The notes: generated from the letters alone by a model not told the origin. Positions 3,926 through 27,062 are shown, counted from the first letter of the stretch. The stretch: 36,268 bases of DNA from Candidatus Thorarchaeota archaeon (GCA_011364905.1 RDNZ01000028.1:1-36268); one strand, 5' to 3'. A program made the numbers and translations.

Positions 3926-4090
3926 CGAACTCTTCGCGGGGGGTTTTGCTTTCGCATCATACGGTGTCAGGCCGGATGCTATCGGCGAGTGCCAAGCGAT
4001 GATGGCTGGTGATTTCCAGATGCGAGTACAAGATGCGGACGTGAGATAGACTGACACAAGGAGTGTTAGAATGCCCTCAGGTCTAAGAAA

Positions 4091-4156
4091 GGCTCAACAG
4101 TGTGCAGGTATAATTAGGGTAAGCCATCTCTGCTAACCCCGTTACGCCTGTACTTC
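4091..4156 (+). other. 5' arm of the pre-16S rRNA processing stem (BHB-like site at 4129-4135)
   Basis: Pairs with 5780-5842: ggctcaacagtg/cattgttgagcc, gcaggta/tacctgt, aggg/ccct, accccgtta/tgacggggt, gcct/aggc, tacttc/gaagta; tctg+cta bulge lies opposite cggg+tga bulge. Confidence 0.85.
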
Positions 4157-4251
4157 ATCAAGCAATTACAGTTCAAAGTGTGTAAAAACTTGTACATGAT
4201 GACTGACCACTACTCCAGTCACACCTTGCTAACCATGTACAATGTGGACCA

Positions 4252-5753
<1,502 letters not shown>

Positions 5754-5769
5754 ATGCTTTATCCATCTT

Positions 5770-5863
5770 AGATGGGTAAGAAGTAGAGGCTGACGGGGTC
5801 GGGTGAACAGGGAACTTTCCCTTTACCTGTCATTGTTGAGCCACCCTTTTCATTTTGCAATTG
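5770..5863 (+). repeat. Repeat copy 1 (native 16S trailer: 3' arm of the processing stem plus T-rich tail)
   Basis: agatgggtaagaagtagaggctgacggggtcgggtgaacagggaactttccctttacctgtcattgttgagccacccttttcattttgcaattg; complementary to 4091-4156. Confidence 0.92.
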
Positions 5864-6441: not shown

Positions 6442-6514
6442 GATTGGTTCTGGATTAGGTCCTTCCCGCGAAACACCATCTCAAATGGTGGTTACAGCTT
6501 GTTCTGTCTTCGGA

Positions 6515-6601
6515 CAGAGAGAGGTGCAGGCTTACGACGGGGTCAGGTAATCAGGGAACTTTCCCTCTCCTCACCTGTTGAGCCACCCTTTTCATTTTGC
6601 A
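6515..6601 (+). repeat. Repeat copy 2 (alternative left-arm allele)
   Basis: cagagagaggtgcaggcttacgacggggtcaggtaatcagggaactttccctctcctcacctgttgagccacccttttcattttgca. Confidence 0.9.
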
Positions 6602-6758
6602 TAAACCAAAGTGTCTGAAAGAAGATAGTCATTTCTATGTTCTCTACAATAAAGCTCTCTATTCCAGAAATAGACATTCGTTGATGCTAAAGCTTAACTC
6701 TATGGCTAGCTATCTGTAAGTTTAGGAGTTTCAGTACTGCGGGATTCACAATGATACT

Positions 6759-7631
6759 TTGGTGAAGGGAACAATGTCATTTGGACATCCATGTTATCAA
6801 CGAATGTCGAAGACACATGCTGCTCTCTTTCTCACACTCTTTCTTTTTCTTCTACCGATTCAGTCAGGATGCGCGGTTTCTGAATCTAACATCACTCAGT
6901 CATTTAGAGCAGCACCGTTGCAAGATATTCCTAATAATCAATCGATAACAATGATGCTGAACGGACACCCTCTTGGGAACTCAATTAATGCCACTTTGGT
7001 CTTTGGATTTCGATTTGATTCTACCGAAAATGAGTACAAAATCGGTTTCTCTCAGCAGTATCTAAGTATCTCAGATTCGCCCCTCTTTCTCCGTGCACTT
7101 GGTCTGGGATACGATGAGATGAGAGAGTTTCCATTCGCATACACTACTGAAGGCATGATCACGGATTATTGGTATAATCACACACCGAATTGGACAAGTA
7201 AAAGACCATACCTGACTTGGACAGAAAAGAGTAGATGGGGTGGATATCTAGGACCGATATCTGAGGAGAATATGACTCATCTCTCAATGGCTGGCGATTT
7301 CGTTGAATTTGAGAATCTAACCATCTACTACGAGGATGGCTCATCTTCGTTATGCGGTCCTGAGTTGATAACACTTGGTGTTAACCTTACAAAAACTGAT
7401 AGCGAGTGGTCGGTTCAATATGTGATCTCTACATCGACATTGGAAGGAGTTACCATAGATGAGTCGCGAGTTACAATTCAACTGACCAAAGCAGACCAGG
7501 TGTCGATTGTGTTCATCTCGATGTTATCCGGAGGAATTGTTCTGGTCATCATTACTATCGTAATCTACAAGAAAAGAGAATCGATTGTCCGTACTAAAAC
7601 CCATGAATCATCAAGCATATCCCCAGTCTGA
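6759..7631 (+). CDS. Secreted/surface protein with N-terminal signal and C-terminal TM anchor
   Basis: Hydrophobic N-terminal stretch (AALFLTLFLFLLPI), C-terminal TM followed by YKKR; start may be 6774 or later. Confidence 0.75.
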   Translation: MVKGTMSFGHPCYQRMSKTHAALFLTLFLFLLPIQSGCAVSESNITQSFRAAPLQDIPNNQSITMMLNGHPLGNSINATLVFGFRFDSTENEYKIGFSQQYLSISDSPLFLRALGLGYDEMREFPFAYTTEGMITDYWYNHTPNWTSKRPYLTWTEKSRWGGYLGPISEENMTHLSMAGDFVEFENLTIYYEDGSSSLCGPELITLGVNLTKTDSEWSVQYVISTSTLEGVTIDESRVTIQLTKADQVSIVFISMLSGGIVLVIITIVIYKKRESIVRTKTHESSSISPV

Positions 7632-7679
7632 AATGATATTCACTCTGCGGTGCAATCTTTAGGTTTTCCCAAAGCCAAG

Positions 7680-7720
7680 ACAGAAACTTGTCCTTACTTC
7701 GCCTGTTGAGCCACCCTTTC
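7680..7720 (+). repeat. Repeat copy 3 (right half only)
   Basis: acagaaacttgtccttacttcgcctgttgagccaccctttc. Confidence 0.8.
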
Positions 7721-7812
7721 TCTCAAAAAATGAAGACACCTGCATTTCTTGCACATTCTACTCTATCTAGTGGCATTCCTTTATTCATTCTGCATCCTCG
7801 TGGAGACAGATT

Positions 7813-8328
7813 TTATGGTTCATTTGGTAGTAGTGGTGACCGATACCCAAGCTCCTTTAGCTTTTTGTAAAGCAATTTACTGGAGTCCATTGATCCTGAA
7901 CGTCTCCATTTAGCGGCAAGATCTGGTTCAATAGATTTGATTTTTTCAAACCATGCCATTGCAAAGACAGCTAGAGATTCAGGAATTAATCTGGCATTGG
8001 TAACCTTAGCTTCGACAAGCTTTCCCATTGAATCGAAGAATGAACCTACAAAGATGAATTTAGCATATGCTTTGGGATTTGTTCTGGGTCCATATTTCTG
8101 ATCGAACTCTTGAGCATCTTTCCAATTCCACTCTATAACAACTTCTGAAGCATGCTGAATAAACTCCAAGTCTGCCTGTCTATGAAAATCAAGAAAGACT
8201 GAAGCTTGTCTTGACTTTGCAAAGTTCCTTATAGAGAGAACACTCATGATAACACCAATTAGGACGCTTGCTGCGGCAATCATTATTGATATCGATTGTA
8301 AATCCAGCTCCATCTGCAAGTGACTCAC
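7813..8328 (-). CDS. N-terminally membrane-anchored hypothetical protein (DUF4760-like architecture)
   Basis: One N-terminal TM followed by a helical domain with FFDSMGKLV; family call is by resemblance only. Confidence 0.7.
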   Translation of the reverse strand: MSHLQMELDLQSISIMIAAASVLIGVIMSVLSIRNFAKSRQASVFLDFHRQADLEFIQHASEVVIEWNWKDAQEFDQKYGPRTNPKAYAKFIFVGSFFDSMGKLVEAKVTNARLIPESLAVFAMAWFEKIKSIEPDLAAKWRRSGSMDSSKLLYKKLKELGYRSPLLPNEP

Positions 8329-8467
8329 CTATGTCCTGTCGTGAGGAATATTCTATACTAAAAAAGGCTCTGAGTAGAGCTCCAGATTTCCAAGAAGCAA
8401 GACGGAGTGTGCAAACAGATTTGAAGAGTAGTTTTGTTGTTTTGTATACTATCTATTTGCAAAGAAG

Positions 8468-8608
8468 ATGAAAGTAAGGGAACTGAGATTCTATCTGGTT
8501 AGACATGGCCAATCTGAAGCAAATGTAACGAAGACGATCTCTGGACATAGCGAAACGCCACTAACTGAATTAGGACAAGCCCAGGCTGAAGCTATTGGGA
8601 TGACTTGA
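8468..8608 (+). pseudogene. Truncated histidine phosphatase (phosphoglycerate mutase-like) N-terminal fragment
   Basis: Manual translation MKVRELRFYLVRHGQSEANVTKTISGHSETPLTELGQAQAEAIGMT*: RHG motif and PLT-x-x-G-x-x-QA motif; only 46 aa. Confidence 0.85.
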
Positions 8609-8737
8609 ACTTCTCATTTCAGTGGGATTCCTAGACGCTTCATACCAATATTTGTAGTTGAATATCTGTATCCAGCAGATGCGTGAGATATGTAGTATTA
8701 TTATAGGCGTATATGAGATTCCATTCTGAGGATTTCA

Positions 8738-9010
8738 ATGACTGAAAATGATGAGCTAAGAAAAGAAGCAAAAGAGCGGGCTGAAATGAAGTTTTCATTC
8801 TATATCAACATCGCGCTCTATATAATCATCAATGGCATTCTCATTTCCATCTGGTACTTCAATGGTATGGGATATCCATGGATCATCTTTCCGCTAGTAG
8901 GATGGGGAATAGCTGTCGTGATACATTATCTTTTGGCATTTGTCTTCCCTGGAAGAAAGTTCTTAGATGGAATGGCTGAGAAAGAATATGAAAAATTAAC
9001 AAGGGGCTAG
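8738..9010 (+). CDS. 2TM domain-containing protein
   Basis: EAKERAE...FYIN..LYIIIN and WIIFPLVGWGIAVVIH are characteristic of the 2TM family. Confidence 0.85.
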   Translation: MTENDELRKEAKERAEMKFSFYINIALYIIINGILISIWYFNGMGYPWIIFPLVGWGIAVVIHYLLAFVFPGRKFLDGMAEKEYEKLTRG

Positions 9011-9102
9011 CGTACGCTATCCCTAAACTCTTTTTTTTGACTTAGCTTTTTGAGAGAACCGATATAATTAGTCCTAACGATCCGATGGACACAACCAGTC
9101 TC

Positions 9103-9189
9103 AGATGGGTAAGAAGTAGAGGCTGACGGGGTCGGGTGAACAGGGACCTTTCCCTTGCCTGTACTATTGAGTCACTCTTCTCATTTTAC
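9103..9189 (+). repeat. Repeat copy 4 (full length)
   Basis: First 44 nt identical to 5770-5813, then cctttcccttgcctgtactattgagtcactcttctcattttac. Confidence 0.95.
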
Positions 9190-9288
9190 ATTCAGTCTCA
9201 GTGGTTTGCAGGTCTGGTCTTATTCACCTGAAATCTCAAACAGATATTTCGATAGTATGAAATATCACGATTCATCTTTTGACGTAAT

Positions 9289-9765
9289 GTGATTAATTCA
9301 GAATTACTGAGCGCCTTTCGAATAATAGTCAATCAGCTAGAGGACGAGGACATTCGCTGGACAATAATGGGAAGTGCTAGTCTTGCTCTTCAAGGAGTAG
9401 ATATCACCCCCAACGATATCGATATTCTAACAGATGAGTATGGGGCGTTCAAAATTGGTGTATTATTGAAAGAATTTGAAATCAAACCAGTTAGCTTTAG
9501 CCAGACTGATCTTTTCGAGTCTTTCTACGGCATCTATGACATAGAAGGAACAAAAGTCGATGTAATGGGAGATTTTAGAGTGCGGTTAGAAGGTACATGG
9601 GTTTCTCTATCTGATAGACTCGAATCACCATCACTTGTTCAAATCAATGCAATGAATATACCTGTATCCTCAATGCATGATCAACTATTATTCTATGAAA
9701 AACTAGGTCGTGAGAAAGACAAAGATTGCATTTTAAAGATTAAGAAAGTTCTCAGAATTTTCTGA
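9289..9765 (+). CDS. Pol-beta superfamily nucleotidyltransferase (aminoglycoside adenylyltransferase-like, small)
   Basis: GS-x-S-L-x-x-QG...PNDIDIL motif and third Asp in KVDVMG. Confidence 0.8.
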   Translation: MINSELLSAFRIIVNQLEDEDIRWTIMGSASLALQGVDITPNDIDILTDEYGAFKIGVLLKEFEIKPVSFSQTDLFESFYGIYDIEGTKVDVMGDFRVRLEGTWVSLSDRLESPSLVQINAMNIPVSSMHDQLLFYEKLGREKDKDCILKIKKVLRIF

Positions 9766-9854
9766 AGATGCGAGGCCCGCTGTCAAATTAGAAAGTATCT
9801 ATTTAAAATCCGAATACGATATTAGCAAGCAAATGCTAGTACTGTGAAGGTTAG

Positions 9855-10775
9855 GTGCTGAGTTTGGACGAGATTGACAAGGGAATTCTCTTTGGAATGC
9901 TCCAAAATTGTAGAACTCCATATCGAACCCTTGCCCAGCAGTTTAACATGACCGCAAATGCTGTCAAGAAGAGAGTTCAGAAGCTGGTTGATACAGGTGT
10001 GATTGTGAAGTTTACCGCCGAACTTTCTCCGGCTATGGTAGATGGTGAGAACTGTCTTGCTGTGATTTTCACGGATGGAGGAGAGGATGCGGATGAACTT
10101 GTTCAAAAAATAGGATCACACTTGTTGATAAGAGAGGTAGGCATCTTATCTGGTTCATCATATTTGGCAATGGGAACCCACATTGGTTCAGAGAGTCTTA
10201 GAGACCTTGGCAGCTTTCTTCGCGGAATTGATAATGTCAAGAGTGTTGAGCTACACGGTCTTGTAAAGGATGCGCTTCATGGAAGGAAGACTATTTTGAC
10301 CAAACTGCAGCTTAGAGTTCTACACTGCCTTGTCGAAGATCCTCGTATGTCGACTAGAAAGATATCAGAGATAACCGGACTTACAGTAAGAAGAACTCGA
10401 TTAACAATCAATAAACTTCTCGATAGTGGAGCAGTTTCCCTTGGAATAAGATGGAATCTAAGCGCAGGAGAAGGATTTGTCTTTCTTTTGAAAATCAGAT
10501 GGGATGACAAAACTGGAAGTCTTGGGAATGTGCTCCTCTTCATAAGTGAGAATTTCCCTGTGGCATTCTATGGTCCATTAGTTTCAGCAACAGAATCAAT
10601 AGTTTTTGCAGTATTTGTTGTTAAGCAGTTCAAAGATGCAGATTCAATATCAAAGAAGATTACACAAGCACCTTTTGTGGAAACTTGTCAAGCGCTTTTT
10701 GGCAGACCTCAAAAAAGTTTTCCAGATATCCGCAGTACTCACCTTACAGAACTACTCAAAAATGCTGGTCTGTAA
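9855..10775 (+). CDS. Tandem Lrp/AsnC-type winged-helix transcriptional regulator
   Basis: Two HTH units: LDEIDKGIL...NCRTPYRTLA...AVKKRVQKL and LQLRVLHCLVEDPRMSTRKIS. Confidence 0.88.
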   Translation: MLSLDEIDKGILFGMLQNCRTPYRTLAQQFNMTANAVKKRVQKLVDTGVIVKFTAELSPAMVDGENCLAVIFTDGGEDADELVQKIGSHLLIREVGILSGSSYLAMGTHIGSESLRDLGSFLRGIDNVKSVELHGLVKDALHGRKTILTKLQLRVLHCLVEDPRMSTRKISEITGLTVRRTRLTINKLLDSGAVSLGIRWNLSAGEGFVFLLKIRWDDKTGSLGNVLLFISENFPVAFYGPLVSATESIVFAVFVVKQFKDADSISKKITQAPFVETCQALFGRPQKSFPDIRSTHLTELLKNAGL

Positions 10776-10939
10776 ATCTCGTTTCATAGAACTTCTATCT
10801 ATGCCTGAATGCTCTATATGAACAACTGAGTTCACAAATCACTTCTTTTCTGCACCTTGTCAGGTTCTTACTGAACTTGTTAGCACACATGAATAGAATT
10901 GCTTTTTCTGTCCCACATTAGTAGAGGTGATTTCATCAA

Positions 10940-11719
10940 ATGGAAGTCATTGTTGAGCAATCATTCAAGAAAACCAAGAAAACTGCTATTGAGCTGAAGA
11001 ATCTGACAAAGAGGTTTGGTAACCTCACAGCTGTTGATGGGCTTTTTCTTGATATTAGATGGGGTGAGATTTTTGGTCTTCTAGGACCAAATGGAGCTGG
11101 AAAGACAACAACAGTCAATATACTTTCGACGTTACTGGACCCTACTGAAGGCTATGCTACTGTGGCCGGACACGATGTTGTTGAGAAAGCTAGTGAAGTT
11201 CGAAAGGTGATTGGTCTCTGTCCACAGGAACCAGCATACTTTCCATATCTCACTGGTCGAGAAAACATAGAGTTATTCGGTCAACTTCATTCAGTGCCAC
11301 AGAAACTACTCGGTGAACGAATTGAGAATTTGGCTCAGAGAGTTGATATTCATGATGATATTGACCGACGTGCAAGTCATTATAGCGGTGGGATGATACG
11401 TCGTATCAGCACTATCATGGCGCTCATTCACGATCCTCCTGTCGCTTTGCTTGATGAGCCCACTGTCGCAATGGATCCGATATCTCGCAGGTCAGTATGG
11501 GACTTCATCAAAGAACTGAGAAGCCAAAACAAGACAATTATTCTTACAACACATTACATGGAAGAAGCACAGGAACTCTCCGATAGAGTCGGCATAATCG
11601 ATGAAGGTAGACTGATTGAGGTCGGACCGCCCCAAGACTTGATAGACAAATACCAGGTAAACGACCTAGAAGATGTCTTCGTCTTGAGAACGGGTAAGAA
11701 GCTAAAGGAGGAGGTCTAG
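10940..11719 (+). CDS. ABC-2 type exporter ATP-binding protein
   Basis: Walker A GPNGAGKT, signature YSGGM, Walker B LLDEPT, H-loop TTHYMEEA. Confidence 0.95.
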   Translation: MEVIVEQSFKKTKKTAIELKNLTKRFGNLTAVDGLFLDIRWGEIFGLLGPNGAGKTTTVNILSTLLDPTEGYATVAGHDVVEKASEVRKVIGLCPQEPAYFPYLTGRENIELFGQLHSVPQKLLGERIENLAQRVDIHDDIDRRASHYSGGMIRRISTIMALIHDPPVALLDEPTVAMDPISRRSVWDFIKELRSQNKTIILTTHYMEEAQELSDRVGIIDEGRLIEVGPPQDLIDKYQVNDLEDVFVLRTGKKLKEEV

Positions 11720-12883
11720 ATGGACTTCAAGCGTGTTTTGGCCTTGGTAAAGAAGAACATGAAGAAGTTCACCAGAGACCCAGGCACTCTGTTCCTGCTT
11801 GTATTGTTTCCTGTTGTTCTTACAACCGTGTTTGGATTCGCATTTGGAGGCATTGGTGAATCCGGTCCACAGAGCTTTGAGATTGGAGTTGTCAACACAG
11901 ATTACTCATCAGACCATCCAGAATGGGCTAGTGGATTCTTCACAAATCTCAGTGATATTGAAGGTGTTATCTTAGTAGAATATGCAGATAACGAAACTGG
12001 ACAAGCTGATCTCCTCCAAGGGAGCATAGACGCATTAATTGTGATTCCAACAGGGTTTGGCGACAGTTGTCAATCCTACTGGGAGTTCCCCTTTGATGGA
12101 ACTAGTTGGATAAACACATCCATCAGTCTCTACCTTGATAGTGGATCGTTAGTAGCTACTGCTGCAGTTCCACCAATTGTCCAACAGGTCTTTCTTAGGA
12201 CACTATTCGGAGACGCAAAAATATCACTAGATGTTCCGGTTCAACTGACAAGTCCCCAGCTCATATCTGCAAGTTCAGTTTCACAATGGGACTTCATGGT
12301 GCCAGGTATGTTTGCATTCTCTGCAATCTTCATCACTGTAATAGTAGCACAGTCGATGACCGTGGAGAGAAATGAGGGGCTTCTTAGAAGAATGTCAACC
12401 ACTCCTGTAACCTCCTCCGATTACATGCTTAGTCAGACACTTTCCTACATGACGGTCGCAATCATTCAGGTTGCGATGATTTTCCTGACATCATACCTGA
12501 TTGGTTATAGACCTGCTACAGGATTAATCGGGATTGGATTTGCACTGACGATACTGGCAGTGTTCTCACTATCTTGTGTCGGTTTGGGTCTCATTGCTGC
12601 AACCTTCACGAACTCTGCAGATGGAGCCACAGGTCTAGCATTCATGGTTGCTATGCCTCAGATGTTCCTCGGAACATTCATGCCACTTGGTGGAATAGCT
12701 GATACGATTGCCTCGATTATGCCAAGCACATATGTGACAGACGCTCTGACTACTCTTTTCCTACGAGGTGCACTAGTCACAACTCCCTCGATATGGATTG
12801 ACCTTGTGCTTGTTGTTGCGGCCAGTATTATCGTAGTTATTGCTGGAATACTGGTCTTCGATAGATGGGGTCGAGGTATGTAG
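11720..12883 (+). CDS. ABC-2 type exporter permease
   Basis: N-terminal TM, extracellular domain, then about 5 TMs; ERNEGLLRR..TP motif; abuts the ATPase gene. Confidence 0.92.
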   Translation: MDFKRVLALVKKNMKKFTRDPGTLFLLVLFPVVLTTVFGFAFGGIGESGPQSFEIGVVNTDYSSDHPEWASGFFTNLSDIEGVILVEYADNETGQADLLQGSIDALIVIPTGFGDSCQSYWEFPFDGTSWINTSISLYLDSGSLVATAAVPPIVQQVFLRTLFGDAKISLDVPVQLTSPQLISASSVSQWDFMVPGMFAFSAIFITVIVAQSMTVERNEGLLRRMSTTPVTSSDYMLSQTLSYMTVAIIQVAMIFLTSYLIGYRPATGLIGIGFALTILAVFSLSCVGLGLIAATFTNSADGATGLAFMVAMPQMFLGTFMPLGGIADTIASIMPSTYVTDALTTLFLRGALVTTPSIWIDLVLVVAASIIVVIAGILVFDRWGRGM

Positions 12884-12884
12884 T

Positions 12885-13325
12885 ATGGAGCTCTTTGATT
12901 TGGTTGAGGGGTATAATCTCTTGTACTCTACCTCTCAACTCGATCCTTTTTATTGCGAAACGGGACGAACGGTTCTATTACACGACGATGGGCCTATTAG
13001 AATCTATCTTACGAAAGACCCTGATAGATGGGAAGAAATCGCCCTTGAGATTGATATCTTTATGGGCGTCAGTCGTACTTCAGACTCAGTCCAGTCTGAC
13101 TCGACTAACGATAGAGTTAATGACATTCGCATATCAAGACTTCAACTGATTGAGTGTATTTCCTACATAGAATACATGATTCGTTTGGATGAAGCTGGAT
13201 TCAATCTGGAAGTTGTTTTGGATGGATGCATCTGGACTGCCCGATATTTACTCAGAAGCAAACCAGACTCCCAACTGTTTAGAATAATTGCTCCTCCAAT
13301 GTATCGGAATTTTGGTGAAGAATAA
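12885..13325 (+). CDS. Hypothetical protein
   Basis: ATG at 12885 directly after the permease stop; in frame with ORF 12840-13325. Confidence 0.7.
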   Translation: MELFDLVEGYNLLYSTSQLDPFYCETGRTVLLHDDGPIRIYLTKDPDRWEEIALEIDIFMGVSRTSDSVQSDSTNDRVNDIRISRLQLIECISYIEYMIRLDEAGFNLEVVLDGCIWTARYLLRSKPDSQLFRIIAPPMYRNFGEE

Positions 13326-13368
13326 TGATTGAGTATGAAATAAAATTGACATTAGGAGTCGAAAAAAC

Positions 13369-13854
13369 TTGACAAAAATAAAAGCAAAACAAGAAGTTGG
13401 TGAAACGGATCAAAAATGGAATTCTTATGAAAATAAATTGGCGTCAATTTCACGAAGAGCTGTGGCACAGATTATAGATTTCACGATTTTAGCCACAATT
13501 TTCATACTAGTGACGTATATCGTAAAAGGTGTCTGGCTCATGTTGCCAGGGGATCACCTATGGATTATTTTTGATCCAATCTGTGGAGTTTTCTTGGTAA
13601 CCATCTTTGCCTATTTCATAGGAATGGAAGGATTACTTGGATTCACTCTTGGGAAACTTGCCACTGGCATTCGTGTCGTCAGTGAGCAAGGCACTAGGAT
13701 AACTATGCAACAGTCTGCCAAACGGAATTTCGGTAGGCTAGTTGATGGTATTGCGGTTTACATTATTGGAATACGGATTGTAAGAAAGTCTCCATTGTTT
13801 CAAAGGTACGGTGATAAAATCGCTCAGACAGTTGTTATCCAACATTATAGATGA
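13369..13854 (+). CDS. RDD family membrane protein
   Basis: RRAVAQIID, TLGKLATGIRVV and QRYGDKIAQTVV motifs. Confidence 0.9.
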   Translation: MTKIKAKQEVGETDQKWNSYENKLASISRRAVAQIIDFTILATIFILVTYIVKGVWLMLPGDHLWIIFDPICGVFLVTIFAYFIGMEGLLGFTLGKLATGIRVVSEQGTRITMQQSAKRNFGRLVDGIAVYIIGIRIVRKSPLFQRYGDKIAQTVVIQHYR

Positions 13855-14726
13855 GAATGAGGAGTCAAAGACAAGAAATGCTTGAGTCAAAAGAATCAGA
13901 TTATAGAACAATGGCTCTATTTTTCTTTGTTAGTCTTGTCGTAGTCCTACTGTATTTGCTAGCCTATCAATTTGGTATAGTTATTTTTCTGGAGGACTTT
14001 AGTGGAGGGCTGCTTCATCCCACACTAATTCTCAATGCATTCTTGATGTTGACTGCGGTATACGGAGTCCTAGTCTTGAAGGAGAAATTTCAAGGGAAAG
14101 ATTTTGGACTTGTAACAGGGAAACTTCCAACAGCAATCATTGTTGGTTTAATCACTTGGGTTACTATTCAGATAATTGAAGGGTTCGCCAGCTATATCTA
14201 TACAGGAAGCATAGAATTTGATTCAAAATGGAGCACAGATAGTCTTGGATTAATCGGATTGTTAATCGGAATGCTATTTGGTACTGCCTTATATGAAGAA
14301 GTCGGATACAGAGGATTTCTTCTGGTTCAGTTCAGGATGAAGATAGAAGACATAACAACGAACAGGGCTCTACAGATATCACTATCTTTGATAGCATCTC
14401 AAACGCTTTTCACTTTGCTTCATGTCCCGTGGAAAGTTCTGAATCAAGGATGGACAACTGCAGCTCTTTTCGATTTGCTATTCAGTGTATTCATGAATGG
14501 GATTATCTATGGTCTACTCTATTTGAGGACTGAGAACCTCTTCTTTGTTATGTTTGTGCATGTCTTTGGAAATGCTCCAACTTCATTGTTCAACTCTTAT
14601 TTGGGTGCCTCCAACATTCTAATTATGTTGGCGATTATCTGGGCGGCAATTTGGCCTACTCTGCAAAGATGGGAAAAAGAGGATGCGAAAATCAATTTGC
14701 TTTTTCCCGAGCAGATAGAGGTGTAG
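13851..14726 (+). CDS. CPBP/CAAX (Abi) family intramembrane metalloprotease
   Basis: EEVGYRG, FTLLH and HVFGN motifs; multi-TM. Confidence 0.9.
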   Translation: MRMRSQRQEMLESKESDYRTMALFFFVSLVVVLLYLLAYQFGIVIFLEDFSGGLLHPTLILNAFLMLTAVYGVLVLKEKFQGKDFGLVTGKLPTAIIVGLITWVTIQIIEGFASYIYTGSIEFDSKWSTDSLGLIGLLIGMLFGTALYEEVGYRGFLLVQFRMKIEDITTNRALQISLSLIASQTLFTLLHVPWKVLNQGWTTAALFDLLFSVFMNGIIYGLLYLRTENLFFVMFVHVFGNAPTSLFNSYLGASNILIMLAIIWAAIWPTLQRWEKEDAKINLLFPEQIEV

Positions 14727-14801
14727 GCTAACGACTGGATCCGGTGAACAGGGAACTTTCCCTTTCCTCTCCTGTTGAGCCACCCTTTCATTTTGCAATT
14801 G
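14712..14801 (+). repeat. Repeat copy 5 (same left-arm allele as copy 2)
   Basis: cagatagaggtgtaggctaacgactggatccggtgaacagggaactttccctttcctctcctgttgagccaccctttcattttgcaattg. Confidence 0.9.
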
Positions 14802-14878
14802 TGTACATACTCTTCTGAATCAAATTACAATCAATAGAATTTATCACCAGTCTATGGTCATAATAATCATAACTCTAA

Positions 14879-15502
14879 TTGGTCCGTGCTAGCTCATTGA
14901 AAGAAACCTCCGAGTGTGGAATAAACTTCACGGTGCTGGAAACGCAACAATGTCCAGCTGAAGAAACCAGAGTGAGAATAGTAGCTCAATTTGATGCAGA
15001 CCTACTCCCAATACTCGAAATATTATTCCTTCATTTCAAGAATGTAACCTATTCTAGAGAATTGAAATGTATTGTAAAGAAGAAAGAAGGAAAGATTACA
15101 TCCATCTTTGGTTCGGGTAAGGTTTCGATTACACATTTGGCGGATCATCAAGAAGGGATCGAGAATCTCAATCATATCGCCGAGCTAATCTCCAAAGCGT
15201 TCGAATATTTACGTCAATATGGACCCACCGAACCAAGTCTTATTCAACAGCACGAGAATCTAAATGCATTAGAAATTGTAAAACTATTGCCGCAAACGAA
15301 TTGTGGAGAGTGCGGTGAATCTGGGTGTTTCACCTTTGCTACACGGTTACTTCTAGGTGAGCACGAAATAGATGATTGCAGTGAGTTATTACGAGATGAA
15401 CTATCTGCATGTAAAGGAGATTTGAGCAAGCTCCTTCAACCAATTAATCTAGACAGCATTGAGAAACAACTTCCAAGCCTTGCTGATCTACTAGGACTTT
15501 GA
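14879..15502 (+). CDS. Fe-S cluster-binding protein (COG4871-like, with AcsC/CdhE-type FeS domain)
   Basis: LPQTNCGECGESGCFTFA...C motif; N-terminal CPAE and IFGSGKV. Confidence 0.82.
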   Translation: MVRASSLKETSECGINFTVLETQQCPAEETRVRIVAQFDADLLPILEILFLHFKNVTYSRELKCIVKKKEGKITSIFGSGKVSITHLADHQEGIENLNHIAELISKAFEYLRQYGPTEPSLIQQHENLNALEIVKLLPQTNCGECGESGCFTFATRLLLGEHEIDDCSELLRDELSACKGDLSKLLQPINLDSIEKQLPSLADLLGL

Positions 15503-15538
15503 AGCAATAGAGAAAAATCTGTGCGAACTCTGACTCAT

Positions 15539-15619
15539 AGAAATAGATGCTGACAGGGTTGACTAATAGGACCTTTCCCTAGCCGCTCACTGTTGAGCTA
15601 CCCTTTCATTTTGTAATTG
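15539..15619 (+). repeat. Repeat copy 6 (diverged)
   Basis: agaaatagatgctgacagggttgactaataggacctttccctagccgctcactgttgagctaccctttcattttgtaattg. Confidence 0.85.
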
Positions 15620-15755
15620 TCCACTTTCTTGAGTGTACAGTATAGTTGCTCCTACACTAAATCGGGGAACTGCAATTAGCATAAGAATCATATAATGAAA
15701 TATTAACTATTGTTATCAGTTCTAATAAATAGATCTGAAGAAGGGCATCGCAAAT

Positions 15756-16346
15756 ATGAGAAAAATTATCGTTCTATCATTTGTAACGATTGATGGTATT
15801 ATGCAGGCACCTGGTGGACCTGAAGAAGACACCTCTGGTGGTTTTAAACACGGCGGCTGGACAGTTCCCTATTTTGATGATTTTCTTGGAGAAGTGATGT
15901 CCGAACAGATGGGTAGATCCTTTGACCTGTTGTTAGGGAGAAAAACGTTTGAGATTTTCGCATCTTATTGGCCTCATCATGAAAGTCCAATAAATGATGC
16001 AACAAAGTATGTTGTATCGAATACACTAACGGAACACGAGTGGAATAACTCAGTCTTCATAAATGGTGATGTCGTGAAGAAAATTAAGGTGTTAAAATCA
16101 CAGGATGGCCCTGACCTGCAAGTTCACGGTAGCAGCAACCTCATTCAGACACTCTTGAAACATGATCTGGTTGATGAATTGTGGCTCAAGATTTTCCCCA
16201 TCACGCTTGGTTCGGGAAAGCGCCTATTTGATGAGGGAACCATTCCTTCTACGTTCACATTAAAGGATGTTAAAATGTCTCCAAAAGGTGTCATCGTTTC
16301 TTCCTATGAGCGCTCAGGAGAAGTGAGAACAGGTTCTTTCAACTAA
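15756..16346 (+). CDS. Dihydrofolate reductase-family protein (RibD C-terminal-like)
   Basis: TIDGIMQAPGGPEED, LLLGRKTFE, HGSSNL, LVDE...P..LGSGKRLF. Confidence 0.92.
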   Translation: MRKIIVLSFVTIDGIMQAPGGPEEDTSGGFKHGGWTVPYFDDFLGEVMSEQMGRSFDLLLGRKTFEIFASYWPHHESPINDATKYVVSNTLTEHEWNNSVFINGDVVKKIKVLKSQDGPDLQVHGSSNLIQTLLKHDLVDELWLKIFPITLGSGKRLFDEGTIPSTFTLKDVKMSPKGVIVSSYERSGEVRTGSFN

Positions 16347-16431
16347 GATGGGTAAGAAGTAGAGGCTGACGGGATCGGGTGAACAGGGAACTTTCCCTAT
16401 CCTCGCCTGTTGAGTCACCCTTCTCATTTTA
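16346..16431 (+). repeat. Repeat copy 7 (full length; native-type left arm, alternative right arm)
   Basis: 52 of the first 53 nt identical to copy 1, then atcctcgcctgttgagtcacccttctcatttta. Confidence 0.95.
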
Positions 16432-16554
16432 CCAATAATAATCTTAACTAAAAATTCGTCTTCTAGTTCACCAAAGCAGGTACGAATTTCGAGAATAATT
16501 ATTATAATGTCCGACTACATATTCTAATACATCGCGTGTACCGGAGTAGAGATT

Positions 16555-18183
16555 TTGAGCAGTTTCATTCAGACAAACAAGAAGATGCTAACAGTTTTCA
16601 TAATATTAATCATTATTGGGTCAACTTCAGTTTTAATCCTCTATGGGTATTTCCTTACTCCAGATAATAACGTGACCTTTGCTGGTGGGACTCTAACACA
16701 AGACACAACATGGTCTGGACTTGTACATGTAGAGAGCTTTGTCGCGGTTCCTGAGGGAATCACATTAACCATCTTGCCTGGGACAACTATTGAGTTCCGT
16801 CATTACCGTGGATATACCGATGATCAACGAGTGGGTTTAATTGTTGGAGGTGGTACGGTCATAGCGCAAGGCACCCCGGATGCTCAAATCTGGTTCACAT
16901 CAGACGCTGATGATCCAATCAATGGTGACTGGGCGGGAATTAGCTGCTCATTCACTGAGAGCGTCTTCAAATATGTCATTGTGGAGTACTCTATAATCGG
17001 TATAGAACAAGTGCATTCGAATATGACCATCAGCCACTCTATCATCCGCTGGGTAAATACAGAAGGAATCTACGCTGAGACTTCCCGTCCCATAATTGAG
17101 TATAATCTGATTTATGGTAATGCGTATCACGATATTGCATTGGAGCAGTTCAATCCTGATGTTCAAATCAGGCATAACATCTTCAAAGGTGGTCATGCAA
17201 GCGTTCATGCTGAAGCTACAAATGTAACAATCGCGGGAAATTACTTCGTCAACTATACCGTTGGAGCGATATCAGGTGGACAGTTCTCCAACATGACAAT
17301 TGTTGAGAATAAGTTCGAAGACATAGATGGATATATGATAAATCTAGACCCGACCACAACGAATGTCACCCAGGATAATGATTTTGGCAGTGGCATTTTA
17401 GAATCCCCGCAGCTTGATTTTCCTGATAGTAAAAGGAGTGACTTAGGTTATACTCCAGGAGATCCCGAAGACGAGTATCTCTATGTATATCCAGAATTTG
17501 ATCAGACACGTAGAATTGTAGATCGACTTGAAAATGAAACAGAGATTGGCTCAGCTCTGACATATTTGAATGGAAGTCTCTGGCGTTTCAACGTTGCTTC
17601 ATGGACTAAAGGCACACTACAAGACTTCATAGAAATCAATCCCGTCACAGGGAATAACACAATCTATGGAAACAACTTTGTAATTAATCCAAGAGGACTC
17701 ACCAATGATGGGAATTTCTTCTGGGTCAATGATGTCACTCTAAAGAAGATTTTCAAGTTCAAAATCAACTCCAGTGATTTCATTGAGATAATAGATTCTT
17801 TTGATATTCCAAACCCATCTGAGGGGGGTCTCTCAAGCCTTGTTTGTGATGGTTCGTATTTATACAGCCTGAGTCGCGACACATCTGTAATCTACAAGAT
17901 TGATATGAGTGGAACCTTAGTCACCTCAATTAATTATCAAGGTGCACCTCTGTGGGGCGCGCTTGTCTGGACTGGAATATACTTCTGGGCACATTCTGGT
18001 ATTCATATCACCAAATGGTACGCTAATTGGACCTTGGCAGGAAAAATCTATCCAGTTGCATGGGGCACTGATGCTTTAGCATGGGATGGAACTTACCTTT
18101 GGTCATTACAAAGGACATGTGAGGTCTGGAAAGATGGAAAGATATTCCAGATTGAAATCTTAAACGATCAACTATTACTTTGA
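16555..18183 (+). CDS. Membrane-anchored extracellular protein: right-handed beta-helix plus C-terminal beta-propeller-like repeats
   Basis: N-terminal TM; GITLTILPGTTI...GTPDAQIWFTS..GDWAGI beta-helix cap; repeated L-x-WDG-x-YLW-type units. Confidence 0.8.
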   Translation: MSSFIQTNKKMLTVFIILIIIGSTSVLILYGYFLTPDNNVTFAGGTLTQDTTWSGLVHVESFVAVPEGITLTILPGTTIEFRHYRGYTDDQRVGLIVGGGTVIAQGTPDAQIWFTSDADDPINGDWAGISCSFTESVFKYVIVEYSIIGIEQVHSNMTISHSIIRWVNTEGIYAETSRPIIEYNLIYGNAYHDIALEQFNPDVQIRHNIFKGGHASVHAEATNVTIAGNYFVNYTVGAISGGQFSNMTIVENKFEDIDGYMINLDPTTTNVTQDNDFGSGILESPQLDFPDSKRSDLGYTPGDPEDEYLYVYPEFDQTRRIVDRLENETEIGSALTYLNGSLWRFNVASWTKGTLQDFIEINPVTGNNTIYGNNFVINPRGLTNDGNFFWVNDVTLKKIFKFKINSSDFIEIIDSFDIPNPSEGGLSSLVCDGSYLYSLSRDTSVIYKIDMSGTLVTSINYQGAPLWGALVWTGIYFWAHSGIHITKWYANWTLAGKIYPVAWGTDALAWDGTYLWSLQRTCEVWKDGKIFQIEILNDQLLL

Positions 18184-18193
18184 CATCCAAGAT

Positions 18194-18258
18194 TGACGGG
18201 GTCGGGAAACCAGGGAACTTTCCCTATCCTCACCTGTTGAGCCACCCTTTTCATTCTG
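18194..18258 (+). repeat. Repeat copy 8
   Basis: tgacggggtcgggaaaccagggaactttccctatcctcacctgttgagccacccttttcattctg. Confidence 0.92.
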
Positions 18259-18291
18259 GTCATTTTTTCATCTCTGGATGCTTTTGAGTTA

Positions 18292-18684
18292 TCATTTGAC
18301 TGGTATACGTCCCCGAAAAATCGATAGAAAAACACCAAACATTCCAATCTCTACGAAGTCAATGCCCAAAAGCGCCGATATGATTGTCCTTGGAAAGAAG
18401 GCAGTCACAAGCGCATTGTGAAACGAAGCAGAAGCACCAAAGCCAACAAACCCAATCACTATCAGAATGAACGCAATAACACTGTTGATCTCTTGTTTCT
18501 GCTTAAGGACTGCAATAGCAAGCAGGTCAGCTCCCAAGATCTGAAGGACTATCAGAATGTCAAGGACCACAGTAAGATTCGCTTCTGGATCTGTTTGAAA
18601 AAAAGCACAAATGATTCCGATAGCAATTGCTAATAAGGTGACAAGCGTGCCGGTCACAGTCCATATTCTGACCGAATTCTTCAA
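18292..18684 (-). CDS. Small 4-TM membrane protein
   Basis: 130 aa with four hydrophobic segments; fills the interval between copies 8 and 9. Confidence 0.7.
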   Translation of the reverse strand: MKNSVRIWTVTGTLVTLLAIAIGIICAFFQTDPEANLTVVLDILIVLQILGADLLAIAVLKQKQEINSVIAFILIVIGFVGFGASASFHNALVTAFFPRTIISALLGIDFVEIGMFGVFLSIFRGRIPVK

Positions 18685-18754
18685 TCCTAAGCCCTTCTGA
18701 GAATTACTAAACTCAAAGTATGCATGGTTTCTAACTCATAAATACCTTAACATC

Positions 18755-18797
18755 GAACTTGTCCAAACTCACACTGTTGAGCCACCCTCTCATTTTT
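18755..18797 (+). repeat. Repeat copy 9 (right half only)
   Basis: gaacttgtccaaactcacactgttgagccaccctctcattttt. Confidence 0.8.
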
Positions 18798-18873
18798 CGA
18801 CGTTTCGTTGTGAGAAGATGCCTTATTGATGAATTCAACTTACTTGTTTACCTATCATATCTTCATTTTCTTC

Positions 18874-20337
18874 TCAGTTTGTTACACTTACTCTTCGGTA
18901 TCTTCGTATATACAGTACAACACAAATGACCAGTATTACTGAAGCTCCTGCAAGAATAATTACAGGGTCCAATGGAGGTGGAGTGGATGTTTCAACAATC
19001 CCATGAGCATAATAGATGTCCATCTCACCATTTCTGCCATCAGACCATGCGATGTGCGGCACTCCATCCGAGTCCAACTGGATACCCATATACTCGCCCG
19101 GTCTTGTATACGAACTCGAAGTCGTTGAATTTGCAACAGGAATCGGTGTACCAAATACTGGATTATCATGTTCATCCCCGGTGAATTCTAGTGTACGGTA
19201 ATATGGTCTATATTCACTCTCTTGTTCATCATAATAGACAATATGCAATCTTCCATCAGTTCCGATGGCCATTTCTGGATTCCACTGATTTCCCTCCACA
19301 GTGGGATTTACTCTAATGCGTGGACTCCAAGTATCGCCATAGTCGTCCGAGTATCTAAGATAAACGTCAAAGGAGTTCTGCCCCTCATCAAATCCATCCG
19401 CCCAAAGTACGTAGAGTCTATCATTCTGATCAAATCTAATCACAGGGAGGGTAATCTTTCCCGGTGCTGATGTTGAGTAGTTCCCATCGTTGTTAATGAA
19501 CCGGCTCTCTTGGAAAGTGGAACCGCCGTCTAGACTTCTTGCAAGTTCGATATTGCCCCAGTTCAATGCTGCAGGCTCTATGTAAAGCCATGAGGTATAC
19601 AGATCGTTTTCACTACTCAGAGCTATGTAAGGGAAGCACCTCCATGGGTCTTGCTTAGTAATATTGCATATCTCTTGAAACGTCTGGCCTCCATCGATGG
19701 ATCGGCTAAGGCGAATATCAGCGTCTCCAAGGGCTGAATTGAGATCTACATCATCATAGACGACATATATTGTTCCATCATCACTAATTGCCATCGTCTC
19801 CTTATCGGCAAAGAAGTTTCCATAGGAAGCTGTTACAGGTGTCCAAGACGCGCCATAATCATCACTTCGAGCCACGGTTATTTGAGAAAGTGAAGGACCT
19901 GAAATTGAGTACTCTAAGTATGCATAGTAAATAGTTCCATCGTGCCACACCAGCCATGGGTCCGATTGTCCTGTTGTTCCACTCGTAAACATTGGCATAT
20001 TATATGGGCTAGTCCAAGTATTTCCTCCATCAACAGACTTTGTCACGCTGACGCGAATACCCCCGCCGTTGTGCGTGTTAGAGTCCTTCCACCCTGCAAA
20101 GATAGTCCCATTATCACTAATGGCCATAGAAACCTCTACATGGTGTGGATATGAGGAATCATCAGTTGAGAGAAGCACATTCGAAGAAAATTCACTCACT
20201 TCGGGTTGAGTTTCAACTGACGCGTTTTGAAGAGCTAGATTTACAATTCTTTTTCCCTCGCTGGTTTGTATGCATGGAAATACTACCAGAAGGACTAGAG
20301 CAAGAGTAAATAAAAATCGTCGAACCATATACAGCAA
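18874..20337 (-). CDS. BNR/Asp-box beta-propeller (sialidase-fold) surface protein, paralogue 1
   Basis: Asp boxes SVDGGNTW, SDDYGASW, SIDGGQTF, SLDGGSTF, SDDYGDTW; signal peptide and C-terminal TM. Confidence 0.88.
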   Translation of the reverse strand: MLYMVRRFLFTLALVLLVVFPCIQTSEGKRIVNLALQNASVETQPEVSEFSSNVLLSTDDSSYPHHVEVSMAISDNGTIFAGWKDSNTHNGGGIRVSVTKSVDGGNTWTSPYNMPMFTSGTTGQSDPWLVWHDGTIYYAYLEYSISGPSLSQITVARSDDYGASWTPVTASYGNFFADKETMAISDDGTIYVVYDDVDLNSALGDADIRLSRSIDGGQTFQEICNITKQDPWRCFPYIALSSENDLYTSWLYIEPAALNWGNIELARSLDGGSTFQESRFINNDGNYSTSAPGKITLPVIRFDQNDRLYVLWADGFDEGQNSFDVYLRYSDDYGDTWSPRIRVNPTVEGNQWNPEMAIGTDGRLHIVYYDEQESEYRPYYRTLEFTGDEHDNPVFGTPIPVANSTTSSSYTRPGEYMGIQLDSDGVPHIAWSDGRNGEMDIYYAHGIVETSTPPPLDPVIILAGASVILVICVVLYIRRYRRVSVTN

Positions 20338-20658
20338 TTCCTATTCATTCAATGGCAATTAGATGTTGAGTTGAGTGGCATAATACCAATCGATTAGAGA
20401 TGACTCCAAGATTCTATGTTTCAATATCCAAGAGGATAGAACTATGCAGTTTTTCGTTGTATTGTTAGCTGGTTTCAATGAACAACAATCTCTAGAAACA
20501 ATAGAGAGTCTGAACAATATTATAATCTCTTTTGTAAAAGCAACTGAATAGAGTTTTGTGCGACCAGTTACTAGCAGAGGAGAAACTGGAAGAATTGTTT
20601 CTTGGAACAATGATGAAGTGATTGACTGAAATCTCTCAGATGGACTTAGGGACATGGA

Positions 20659-20726
20659 CTGACGGGGTCGGGTGAACAGAGAACTTTCCTTATCTTCGCC
20701 TGTTGAGCCACCCTATCTATTTTGCA
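20659..20726 (+). repeat. Repeat copy 10
   Basis: ctgacggggtcgggtgaacagagaactttccttatcttcgcctgttgagccaccctatctattttgca. Confidence 0.92.
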
Positions 20727-20760
20727 TGATTTGATCATCACCAAACCATCAGTTTTTTGA

Positions 20761-21771: not shown

Positions 21772-21801
21772 AATGCTGTATCAACCGAGTAGGATGCTAG
21801 A

Positions 21802-21819
21802 CTGACGGGGTCAGGCGAA
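21802..21819 (+). repeat. Repeat copy 11 (left-arm fragment ending just after the BHB-like bulge)
   Basis: ctgacggggtcaggcgaa, 30 nt after the antiporter stop. Confidence 0.7.
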
Positions 21820-22012: not shown

Positions 22013-23125
22013 ATGAGCAGTCCAAATACTGACAAAGAAGATGTAGCTCGTAGTCCAGTGACTGGTCTGAGCACCCTCGACAAGTTTCTTCCTCTATGGA
22101 TTATCTTGGCAATGATTCTGGGAGTCCTCTTAGGGGATCTAGTGCCTGGGTTTGCTGAGGCTTTAGACTATTGGAGCATTGGGACCGTATCTCTCCCGAT
22201 TGCAATTGGCCTCCTCTGGATGATGTACCCTGTCTTGGCAAAGGTCAAGTATGAGGAGCTTGGACGACTAAAGAAGGAGAAAAAGATGTTTGGGGTTTCA
22301 TTAACCCTGAACTGGTTGATTGGTCCGTTTTTGATGTTTGCACTTGCATGGATATTCCTTGCTGATCTCCCGGAGTATCGAACTGGAATAATCCTCGTAG
22401 GACTAGCGCGCTGCATCGCAATGGTATTGATTTGGAACATGATGGCTGGTGGCTGTAGTGAGTCATGTGCGGTCCTTGTGGCATTGAACTCAGTCTTCCA
22501 GATAATAATGTACAGTCCTGAAGCATGGTTCTTTGTAACTTATCTCTCATCAATTGTGTCACCTGGATCTGGTTCCGTTGTCCAAGTTTCAATTATTGAG
22601 ATCGCATGGAGTGTCATTATCTTCCTTGGGATTCCACTGGTGGCTGGGATTGTAACAAGGTTCAGCCTTATGAAGCGTCGTTCTAAAGAGTGGTACGACG
22701 GAGAATTTGCACCCAAGCTGGGGCCATACGCTTTGATTGGACTTCTCTTCACGATTGTGGTTATGTTCTCTCTGAAAGGGAATACAATTGTTGCTCTTCC
22801 GTTCGATGTACTGAGAATCGCTCTTCCACTTCTTGTTTACTTCGTCATCATGTTCTTTGTTTCATTTGGAATCTCGTATGCCATGAAGTTCGCATACGAT
22901 AAGAATGTGACATTATCATTCACTGCCGCTAGCAACAACTTTGAGCTGGCAATTGCCGTTGCCATTGGAGTATTTGGCATCGGATCCGGCCAAGCACTTG
23001 CTGCAGTTGTAGGTCCACTCATCGAGGTGCCTGTCTTGGTTGGACTTGTCTATGTTTCATTATGGTTAGGACGAAAGTTCTATGGACGAAATGCTAGAAA
23101 TCAAGCTGGCGTGAAACAGGAGTAG
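22013..23125 (+). CDS. acr3: ACR3-family arsenite efflux transporter
   Basis: GLLWMMYPVLAKV, LNWLIGP, GLARCIAMVLIW, AASNNFELAIAVA, GPLIEVP. Confidence 0.96.
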   Translation: MSSPNTDKEDVARSPVTGLSTLDKFLPLWIILAMILGVLLGDLVPGFAEALDYWSIGTVSLPIAIGLLWMMYPVLAKVKYEELGRLKKEKKMFGVSLTLNWLIGPFLMFALAWIFLADLPEYRTGIILVGLARCIAMVLIWNMMAGGCSESCAVLVALNSVFQIIMYSPEAWFFVTYLSSIVSPGSGSVVQVSIIEIAWSVIIFLGIPLVAGIVTRFSLMKRRSKEWYDGEFAPKLGPYALIGLLFTIVVMFSLKGNTIVALPFDVLRIALPLLVYFVIMFFVSFGISYAMKFAYDKNVTLSFTAASNNFELAIAVAIGVFGIGSGQALAAVVGPLIEVPVLVGLVYVSLWLGRKFYGRNARNQAGVKQE

Positions 23126-23147
23126 TATGAATTCGGACCTTCAACAT

Positions 23148-23209
23148 GGTCCGATGAACAATGATCTTTCCCCTTGCTTCAGATGTTAAGTCGCCCTTTT
23201 TCATTTTAC
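23148..23209 (+). repeat. Repeat copy 12 (degenerate)
   Basis: ggtccgatgaacaatgatctttccccttgcttcagatgttaagtcgcccttt...cattttac is collinear with the consensus. Confidence 0.75.
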
Positions 23210-26907: not shown

Positions 26908-26946
26908 ACCAGCAGTAAAAGAAATCATTGGAAATCAGGAGTTAAA

Positions 26947-26981
26947 GATGTAGAGAATAATGGAGTCGGATGAACAGGAAA
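26947..26981 (+). repeat. Repeat copy 14 (degenerate left arm, last recognisable copy)
   Basis: gatgtagagaataatggagtcggatgaacaggaaa matches 5780-5814 at 27 of 35 positions without gaps (manual count). Confidence 0.72.
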
Positions 26982-27062
26982 TCGCCATTACCATTTTTTT
27001 CAAACATCAATTTGTCCTTTCAGGCTATTCAGACGGAATTCCACAGTTGTTCCGATTGGAAC

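Follow-up and report, generated by a model that had tools for sequence, protein, structure and literature searches.

Why does the trailer of a 16S rRNA gene recur again and again between protein-coding genes, and do the copies mark points of gene exchange or relics of old duplications? The question arises from a 36,268-nt stretch of Candidatus Thorarchaeota archaeon DNA (GCA_011364905.1, RDNZ01000028.1:1-36268; hereafter the window), which is the whole of contig C24 of a 3.08-Mb metagenome-assembled genome (MAG) that is 81% complete. In the window, a 16S rRNA gene is followed by its native trailer, and further copies of this trailer ("tails") lie between the genes downstream ("cassettes"). An initial annotation, made from the sequence alone, read the copies between positions 6515 and 20726 as mosaics of distinct left-arm and right-arm alleles joined at a palindromic core, and suggested that they were trailers of foreign 16S loci that had arrived with the neighboring gene. 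Comparison of 182 copies from 29 related Thorarchaeota genomes (40 array regions; copies located with a hidden Markov model [HMM] and two anchors) partly supports this interpretation. In this Asgard (Thorarchaeota) archaeon, genes appear to be swapped at the tails, within an array that resembles an integron but has yielded no integrase. Of the available evidence, the mosaic pattern speaks most clearly for active exchange points, as opposed to relics. Related genomes and loci are cited by label (G and L, respectively); the genome of the window is G000.

Mosaic trailer copies in the window

The ten copies described in the initial annotation were recovered at the same positions, all on the + strand (Table 1); the sequence that they repeat starts ~14 nt past the 16S gene. 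Chance alone would give 2.1 occurrences of the right-end motif in the window, which contains 16. The alleles that the annotation had named are present as described: left allele A (GATGGGTAAGAAGTAGAGGCTGAC) is exact in copies 1, 4 and 7 and diverged in copy 6, left allele B (CAGAKAGAGGTGYAGGCTWACGAC) is found in copies 2 and 5 (identical to each other at 21 of 24 bases), right allele a (TTRCCTGT..TRTTGAG) is carried by copies 1 and 4, and right allele b (TCYTCRCCTGTTGAG) by copies 2, 7, 8 and 10. Near variants of right allele b, absent from the earlier list, are also found in copies 3 and 5. Copy 7 is a hybrid, as had been proposed, with 52 of 53 positions identical to copy 1 from AGATGGG to the end of the palindrome, after which the allele switches. 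Copy 3 is more than a partial copy: it represents a further, third class of allele, distinguished by an inserted GCGGTGCAATC...GGTT..CCC module. Homology of copy 5 to a cassette in G004 begins only at CACCC, the entire copy 6 is common to the G004 ortholog of its upstream cassette, and the left arm of copy 8 is replaced by the end of an open reading frame (ORF) at 16555-18183. Besides a weak eleventh copy, still fainter traces of the repeat are seen at 21792-21819 and 26938-26993.

Type B left arms open with a hairpin that has a conserved TTCG loop (6504-6530 in the window, and many B and B2 copies in L066-L104). The stems of this hairpin vary among copies yet stay complementary (CTCTGTC/GACAGAG, GCAATCC/GGATTGC, CACAGCCC/GGGTTGTG).

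Assortment of the arms and decay of linkage

The two alleles first proposed for each arm exist, but relatives carry at least five left and at least five right classes. Among the 182 copies, five left and five right classes occur in all combinations (Cramer's V 0.33), the main exception to free assortment being class C with right allele e, a combination that is dominant in G001 and G012. Pairwise identities of neighboring segments are correlated at 0.39 for left arm and stem, 0.40 for stem and core, and 0.24 for core and right arm, and those of left and right arms at 0.12 to 0.14. In an HMM alignment of 129 full copies, linkage disequilibrium (r2) falls from 0.11 at <10 nt to 0.03 at >=30 nt, with linkage decaying within about 20 nt. 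A statistic of the pairwise homoplasy index (PHI) type was 0.869, compared with 0.919 +/- 0.013 after permutation, which is below 1999 of 2000 site permutations, and all four gametes are present in 92% of site pairs. Given the nearly free assortment of classes, the decay of linkage and the PHI-type result, the repeat family is, on this alignment evidence, a fine-grained patchwork and not a set of two alleles per arm. The copies are thus not decayed duplicates of the resident trailer, as the initial annotation had contended (Mantel r = 0.14 for the two arms, all allele combinations, and a PHI-type value matched in 1 of 2000 permutations). Chimeric hairpins of left and right parts are predicted to fold like the observed copies (-17.3 versus -18.0 kcal/mol), suggesting that the modules are interchangeable.

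Which part travels with which gene

The mosaic also shows which part of the tail moves with which gene, and that cassettes cross species boundaries. Cross-genome pairs of copies have in common the upstream flank alone in 138 cases, the downstream flank alone in 72 and both flanks in 2; cassette order is therefore not conserved. In upstream-sharing pairs, identity is raised from -85 to about -20 and reaches background by about -10 (positions are relative to the center of the palindrome). In downstream-sharing pairs, similarity starts at variable points, often only at CCACCC or in the T-rich tail. Identity within genomes exceeds identity between genomes by 0.105 in the right arm, 0.058 in the left stem, 0.047 in the core and 0.032 in the left arm, with zero difference in the flanks. 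By these identity patterns, the left arm is part of the upstream cassette, and homogenization of the center and right arm is local. The initial annotation had the trailers arriving with a neighboring gene; the left arm is linked to the gene upstream, not to the one that follows a native trailer. The dominant right allele in a genome is e in G012 (13/14), a in G017 (7/7) and b in the window (7/11), and the right allele is thus largely a property of the host genome.

Local homogenization can be followed at copies 1, 4 and 7, which have in common an identical tract of 44-52 nt. The cassette upstream of copy 4 is 94% identical in G018, where it is followed by the same left arm and by right allele b. 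Despite the similarity of the cassette, several positions of the tract of copies 1, 4 and 7 are different in the G018 ortholog of copy 4, which points to gene conversion within the genome of the window. Between species, the cassettes reach 85-94% nt identity; the adjacent M1 peptidase gene shares ~72% nt identity and is at most 81% identical as protein.

Position of the junctions

The initial annotation placed the allele switch at the palindrome. Change-points in 28 upstream-sharing pairs peak at -30 to -11 and range from -100 to +50, and those in 19 downstream-sharing pairs range from -60 to +110. Three-way recombinants are the strongest evidence on this point. One clean example is the copy at 13105 of L077 in G006, whose left part matches G017 site 12826 (flank 95% identical) and whose right part matches G017 site 10808 (flank 93% identical); of 61 informative sites, 57 are consistent, and the junction falls between -30 and -5. 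Clean triples, chosen by the analyst's judgement, number eleven at nine sites. Their junctions lie at -66, -30 to -5, -16, -15 to -11, -11 to -8 (one site, two triples), -7 to -4, -4 to +6, +21 to +33, +24 and +42. Near-identical tracts stop at 0 to +14 in 87 of 135 between-genome pairs, and those of copies 1, 4 and 7 at -3 to +7. By these comparisons, the palindrome and its 5' flank (about -16 to +6) are the commonest junction, in partial agreement with the earlier placement. Further junctions lie at the left edge or within the GTTGAGCCACCC/T-tail block.

Native trailers and foreign 16S tails

Native trailers differ among species of one genus while leaders stay conserved (Table 1); genera g4 and g34 also have B-type native trailers. 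The idea that the alternative alleles are native elsewhere holds for left alleles B, A2 (the native left arm of G017) and B2, but not for right allele b (TCCTCACCTGTTGAG), which is dominant in the window and native in none of the ~20 native trailers examined. The native trailer and the leader form two predicted helices of about 20 bp each (GGCTCAACAG..CAGGTA with TACCTG..TTGTTGAGCC, and CCCCGTTACGCCTGTACTTC with GAAGTAGAGGCTGACGGGG). The cofolding ddG is -25.2 for the native copy, and -18.4 for all copies versus -4.7 for shuffled sequences. Leaders are almost identical across the compared genomes, including G017 and G012, and pairing is preserved across allele differences through G-U pairs. 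The compensatory leader arms that the initial annotation envisaged did not appear: no genome-specific leader compensation was seen, and every allele still pairs.

A 16S terminus motif lies within 220 nt upstream of 31 of the 182 copies, a count that includes natives and a few chance matches. Some internal copies in relatives start inside the 16S gene at GCTGCGGATGG and carry 55-77 nt of the 16S 3' end; none of the internal copies in the window has 16S sequence. The internal 16S fragments in G017 and G012 are of a type with a hairpin insertion before ATCACCTCC, which the resident 16S genes do not have and which is native in G015, G001, G014, G003 and G029. Because these fragments are of a non-resident type, their sequence is direct evidence that the internal copies include tails of foreign 16S loci. 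Arrival of trailers with a neighboring gene is supported as regards foreign 16S 3' ends and cassettes shared between species, but the left arm travels with the upstream gene.

The hairpin insertion itself is ~28 nt long, lies between GGATGG and ATCA(T)TCACCTCC near the 16S 3' end, and has a stem that covaries. A second insertion, inside GTCGTAACAAGG, is found in G015 and G001. The 16S genes of the window, G017 and G012 are without these insertions.

Mechanism of exchange

On balance, and with moderate confidence, we read the repeats as a recombining family of 16S tails that bound mobile cassettes, with hybrids generated by homologous recombination or gene conversion among the tails. Every cassette would bear the left part of a tail at its 3' side. 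Recombination between two tails would create hybrid sites by the logic of attL and attR, in which the two arms derive from different parents. Three routes could lead to this: a cassette circle could be excised and then re-inserted, a segment of a neighboring array could be imported, anchored on the conserved 16S, or gene conversion could act inside the array. The conserved blocks of the ~100-170-nt tails would serve as resolution points and the 16S gene as an anchor for incoming DNA, and the junctions would fall in these blocks, mostly just 5' of or within the palindrome GGGAACTTTCCC. Repeated exchange within one genome would homogenize the central and right parts, and exchange across species would import tails native elsewhere, at times overwriting the native trailer. 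Exchange of this kind accounts for the variability of the junctions, the gradual loss of linkage with distance and the concerted evolution of the copies. The comparisons show the mosaic structure, the pattern of linkage, the shuffling of cassettes, the native status of alleles in other genomes and the lack of known recombinases; we infer that the enzyme is the host homologous-recombination machinery and not a dedicated recombinase.

Several points weigh against this reading. Junctions cluster near the palindrome beyond what uniform crossover over three conserved blocks of similar length would give, so a protein that recognizes the core may be involved. The palindrome and GTTGAGCCACCC are conserved more than plain recombination substrates need, and the repeat classes have sharp left edges (TCTYAGATGG, AGCTTG, and GCTGCGGATGG inside 16S). 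All the genomes are MAGs, that of the window being 81% complete, such that an enzyme gene could be missed, and the analyzed pairs are phylogenetically non-independent. Neither an excised circle nor a single recent event was observed.

A possible though less probable explanation is that an undescribed site-specific recombinase or structure-specific nuclease acts at the tail hairpin or palindrome, as IntI does at attC, the scattered junctions being due to later blurring by mutation and conversion. Consistent with this, junctions are commonest at -16 to +6, most between-genome tracts end at 0 to +14, and the core and GTTGAGC are strongly conserved. GTTGAG[CT], which equals the R' box GTTRRRY, is present in most copies (in register in 93/182, most others being offset by the anchor). 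The cassette content is also integron-like, with ParE, PIN and UPF0175/DUF3368 toxin-antitoxin modules and 168 singletons among 236 ORF clusters. However, the R'' box RYYYAAC is found within -50 to -15 in only 1 of 182 copies, with GGCTGAC, GGCTAAC or GGCTTAC there instead. The cassette boundary is not fixed at G|TTRRRY (clean junctions extend from -66 to +43, including those at -66, +24 and +42), and only 62% of ORFs are co-oriented with the array. The tyrosine recombinase family PF00589 is absent from the genome of the window and from 20 of 28 genus genomes, one of them 97% complete, and is found in 8 of 28. No Y1 transposase, resolvase or TnpB was detected above cutoff in the genome of the window, and no integrase was found among 30 window ORFs scanned against Pfam. 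Cas1 is present in 1 of 28 genus genomes; the data speak against Cas1-TnpB as a general mechanism in the genus. None of the known recombinases follows the distribution of the arrays. It is doubtful, if conceivable, that the trailer hairpin or palindrome is the site of an undescribed integrase-independent system that captures and shuffles cassettes behind the Thorarchaeota rRNA gene; if true, this would be a functional integron analog built on an rRNA processing element.

RNAalifold returned no consensus structure for a MAFFT alignment of 122 copies, which was too gappy. In the core, counts of base pairs point to conservation and not to covariation, with G:T roughly as frequent as A:C. Predicted folding is stronger for the top than for the bottom strand (-20.5 versus -17.8 kcal/mol), but only 1.8 kcal/mol better than for shuffled sequence; the difference between strands is probably an effect of composition.

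Somewhat less probable again is break-driven replacement of the tail, in which the 16S end or trailer is cut and repaired from an imported 16S end with its trailer and cargo, such that the old tail is pushed downstream and the mosaics are repair junctions. The internal copies of relatives that begin inside 16S, with 55-77 nt of it, and the non-resident fragments in G017 and G012 are what this would produce, and native trailers do vary among species with conserved 16S genes and leaders. In its simple form, though, it predicts that a trailer moves with its downstream cargo. The left arm is instead tied to the upstream cassette and is common to only a few downstream-sharing pairs, the internal copies of the window are without 16S sequence, and no nuclease candidate was identified.

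It is very unlikely that there was no exchange and that old duplicates of the resident trailer diverged under RNA-structure constraint, with discrete-looking alleles recurring. While the four-gamete result may in part be due to recurrent mutation, and all copies keep the predicted pairing with the leader, allele blocks of 15-25 nt recur across genomes in differing combinations, linkage falls with distance, and cassettes are far more alike between species than the neighboring core gene; three-way recombinants with 93-95% identical flanks already contradict this explanation. Assembly artefact, with reads of different strains or positions joined across the repeat, is about equally unlikely: although every genome is a MAG assembled from short reads and contig ends often lie in or close to 16S and repeats, identical stretches are at most ~55 nt and the core ~14 nt, by estimate shorter than the final assembly k-mers, the same units of cassette and left arm are found in independent MAGs from different studies, and arrays lie inside contigs of 120-243 kb.

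Comparison with known systems

The array resembles sedentary chromosomal integrons and clusters of attC sites lacking integrases (CALINs) in having small, highly variable cassettes rich in toxin-antitoxin modules. As in integron attC arrays, a structured repeat of ~90 nt that ends in GTTGAGC follows each cassette, and cassettes are shuffled between species. Unlike integrons, the array is without IntI, nearly all copies are without the R'' box, and no fixed junction exists at G|TT. The repeated element is the trailer of the 16S processing stem, the 16S gene serves as the anchor of the array, and co-orientation of ORFs is incomplete. The supplement of Ghaly et al. (2022; PMC9668308), on archaeal integrons, lists at least two Thorarchaeaceae genomes, each with 2 attC sites. 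Full-text literature searches found no description of the present array.

Integrative elements are known to accrete in tandem at the 3' ends of tRNA and tmRNA genes, as in tycheposon-type islands. In both cases, the 3' end of a stable RNA gene is the insertion point, each insertion leaves a partial copy of the gene tail, sites are hybrid in the manner of attL and attR, trailer copies flank every unit, and copies in relatives include the final 55-77 nt of 16S. The differences are that the target is the 16S trailer, that the cargo consists of single cassettes without an integrase, and that junctions vary. With the archaeal pre-16S processing stem, a leader-trailer helix with a bulge-helix-bulge (BHB) site for EndA, the element has in common that the native copy forms two ~20-bp helices with the leader and that all copies are complementary to it; it differs in being repeated more than 10 times between protein genes. 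In another Asgard lineage, Heimdallarchaeum, the elements HeimM2 and HeimV2 are inserted between the 16S gene and tRNA-Arg (Wu et al. 2022, PMC8813620), which makes the position just 3' of the lone 16S gene a hot spot for insertion there as well. These are single elements of 8-44 kb, one with a homing-endonuclease-like gene, and not trailer-bounded cassette arrays (PMC8813620).

Together, the comparisons offer a testable picture of an Asgard lineage that may be building an integron-like store of accessory genes without an integrase, in the course of which even the functional trailer of the sole 16S gene would be overwritten. They also call for caution, in that vertical inheritance does not hold in these organisms for the sequence immediately 3' of 16S.

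Distribution and other features of the locus

All 27 other genomes of the genus carry the repeat, as do 5 of 9 sampled other genera of the family, and co-oriented arrays begin at the 16S gene wherever it was assembled. No match to the species-specific junction between the 16S end and the native trailer emerged from a metagenome scan. A scan of IMG/VR with the core and GTTGAGC gave 7 pattern matches, none of which was a real copy by HMM, and no viral carrier was seen. Two inverted copies in G012 lie ~12 kb upstream of 16S, beyond the M1 peptidase gene (L093:3884-4546, contig ~53.9-54.5 kb); the repeats are therefore not strictly limited to the downstream array. In four genomes representing at least two genera, a conserved protein of 1630-1720 aa is encoded on the opposite strand immediately beyond the native trailer (Table 1). 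Pfam gave no match in the 1693-aa protein that adjoins 16S in these four relatives.

Table 1. Positions and allele types of the trailer copies, native trailers and associated features
Feature	Genome	Position	Strand	Remarks
Archaeal 16S rRNA gene	Window	4252..5753	+	Rfam RF01959, 1366 bits
16S leader arms pairing with trailer	Window	4087..4160	+	GGCTCAACAGTGTGCAGGTA ... CCCCGTTACGCCTGTACTTC
Copy 1 (native trailer)	Window	5767..5856	+	Left A, right a; best predicted leader pairing
Copy 2	Window	6511..6600	+	Left B (TTCG hairpin + GAGGTGCAGGC), right b
Copy 3	Window	7627..7726	+	Class C with inserted module, right b-like
Copy 4	Window	9100..9189	+	Left A, right a-like
Copy 5	Window	14705..14799	+	Left B, right b variant
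Copy 6	Window	15537..15616	+	Diverged left arm, right c
Copy 7 (hybrid)	Window	16343..16432	+	Left A, right b
Copy 8	Window	18190..18258	+	Similarity from TGACGGGG on; right b
Copy 9	Window	18749..18798	+	Right half only
Copy 10	Window	20636..20727	+	A2-like left arm (GATGGACTTAGGG..), right b
Weak eleventh copy	Window	23125..23209	+	nhmmer E = 1e-7
Native trailer	G000 (window)			Left A, right a
Native trailer	G017			Left A2, right a
Native trailer	G012			Left B+C, right e
Native trailer	G015			Left B2, right a
Native trailer	G001			Left B2+C, right e
Native trailer	G014			Left B2, right c
16S with hairpin insertion	G015	L088:15281-15420
16S with hairpin insertion	G001	L091
16S with hairpin insertion	G014	L074
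16S with hairpin insertion	G003	L072
16S with hairpin insertion	G029	L099
1630-1720 aa protein	G030	L085:2749-7830
1630-1720 aa protein	G015	L088:9945-15116
1630-1720 aa protein	G001	L091:7857-12749

In the window, no 23S gene adjoins the 16S gene. By Pfam, the genes between the trailer copies encode membrane proteins, an ANT(2'')-like nucleotidyltransferase, an AsnC-type regulator with an ABC-2 exporter, RibD_C, a TBP/FeS protein, and beta-helix and BNR proteins. The T-rich tail was considered as a promoter for leaderless mRNA and rejected; the spacing to the start codon suits cassette 1 alone. Two BNR-repeat paralogs with 72-77% DNA identity lie on the - strand at 18874-20337 and 31128-32579, one within the repeat-bounded array and the other past the last clear copy. 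A single 642-aa ORF at 24979-26907 fuses a SAM methyltransferase, a CdhD/corrinoid-type domain and two 4Fe-4S ferredoxin motifs; the initial annotation called it HgcAB-like. A RACo-like ASKHA/2Fe-2S gene at 33861-35468 recurs in six other genomes, beside or between trailer copies, at about 15 kb from 16S in G017 compared with 28 kb in the window. Given this placement beside trailer copies in relatives, the array may run, in eroded form, to the end of the contig.

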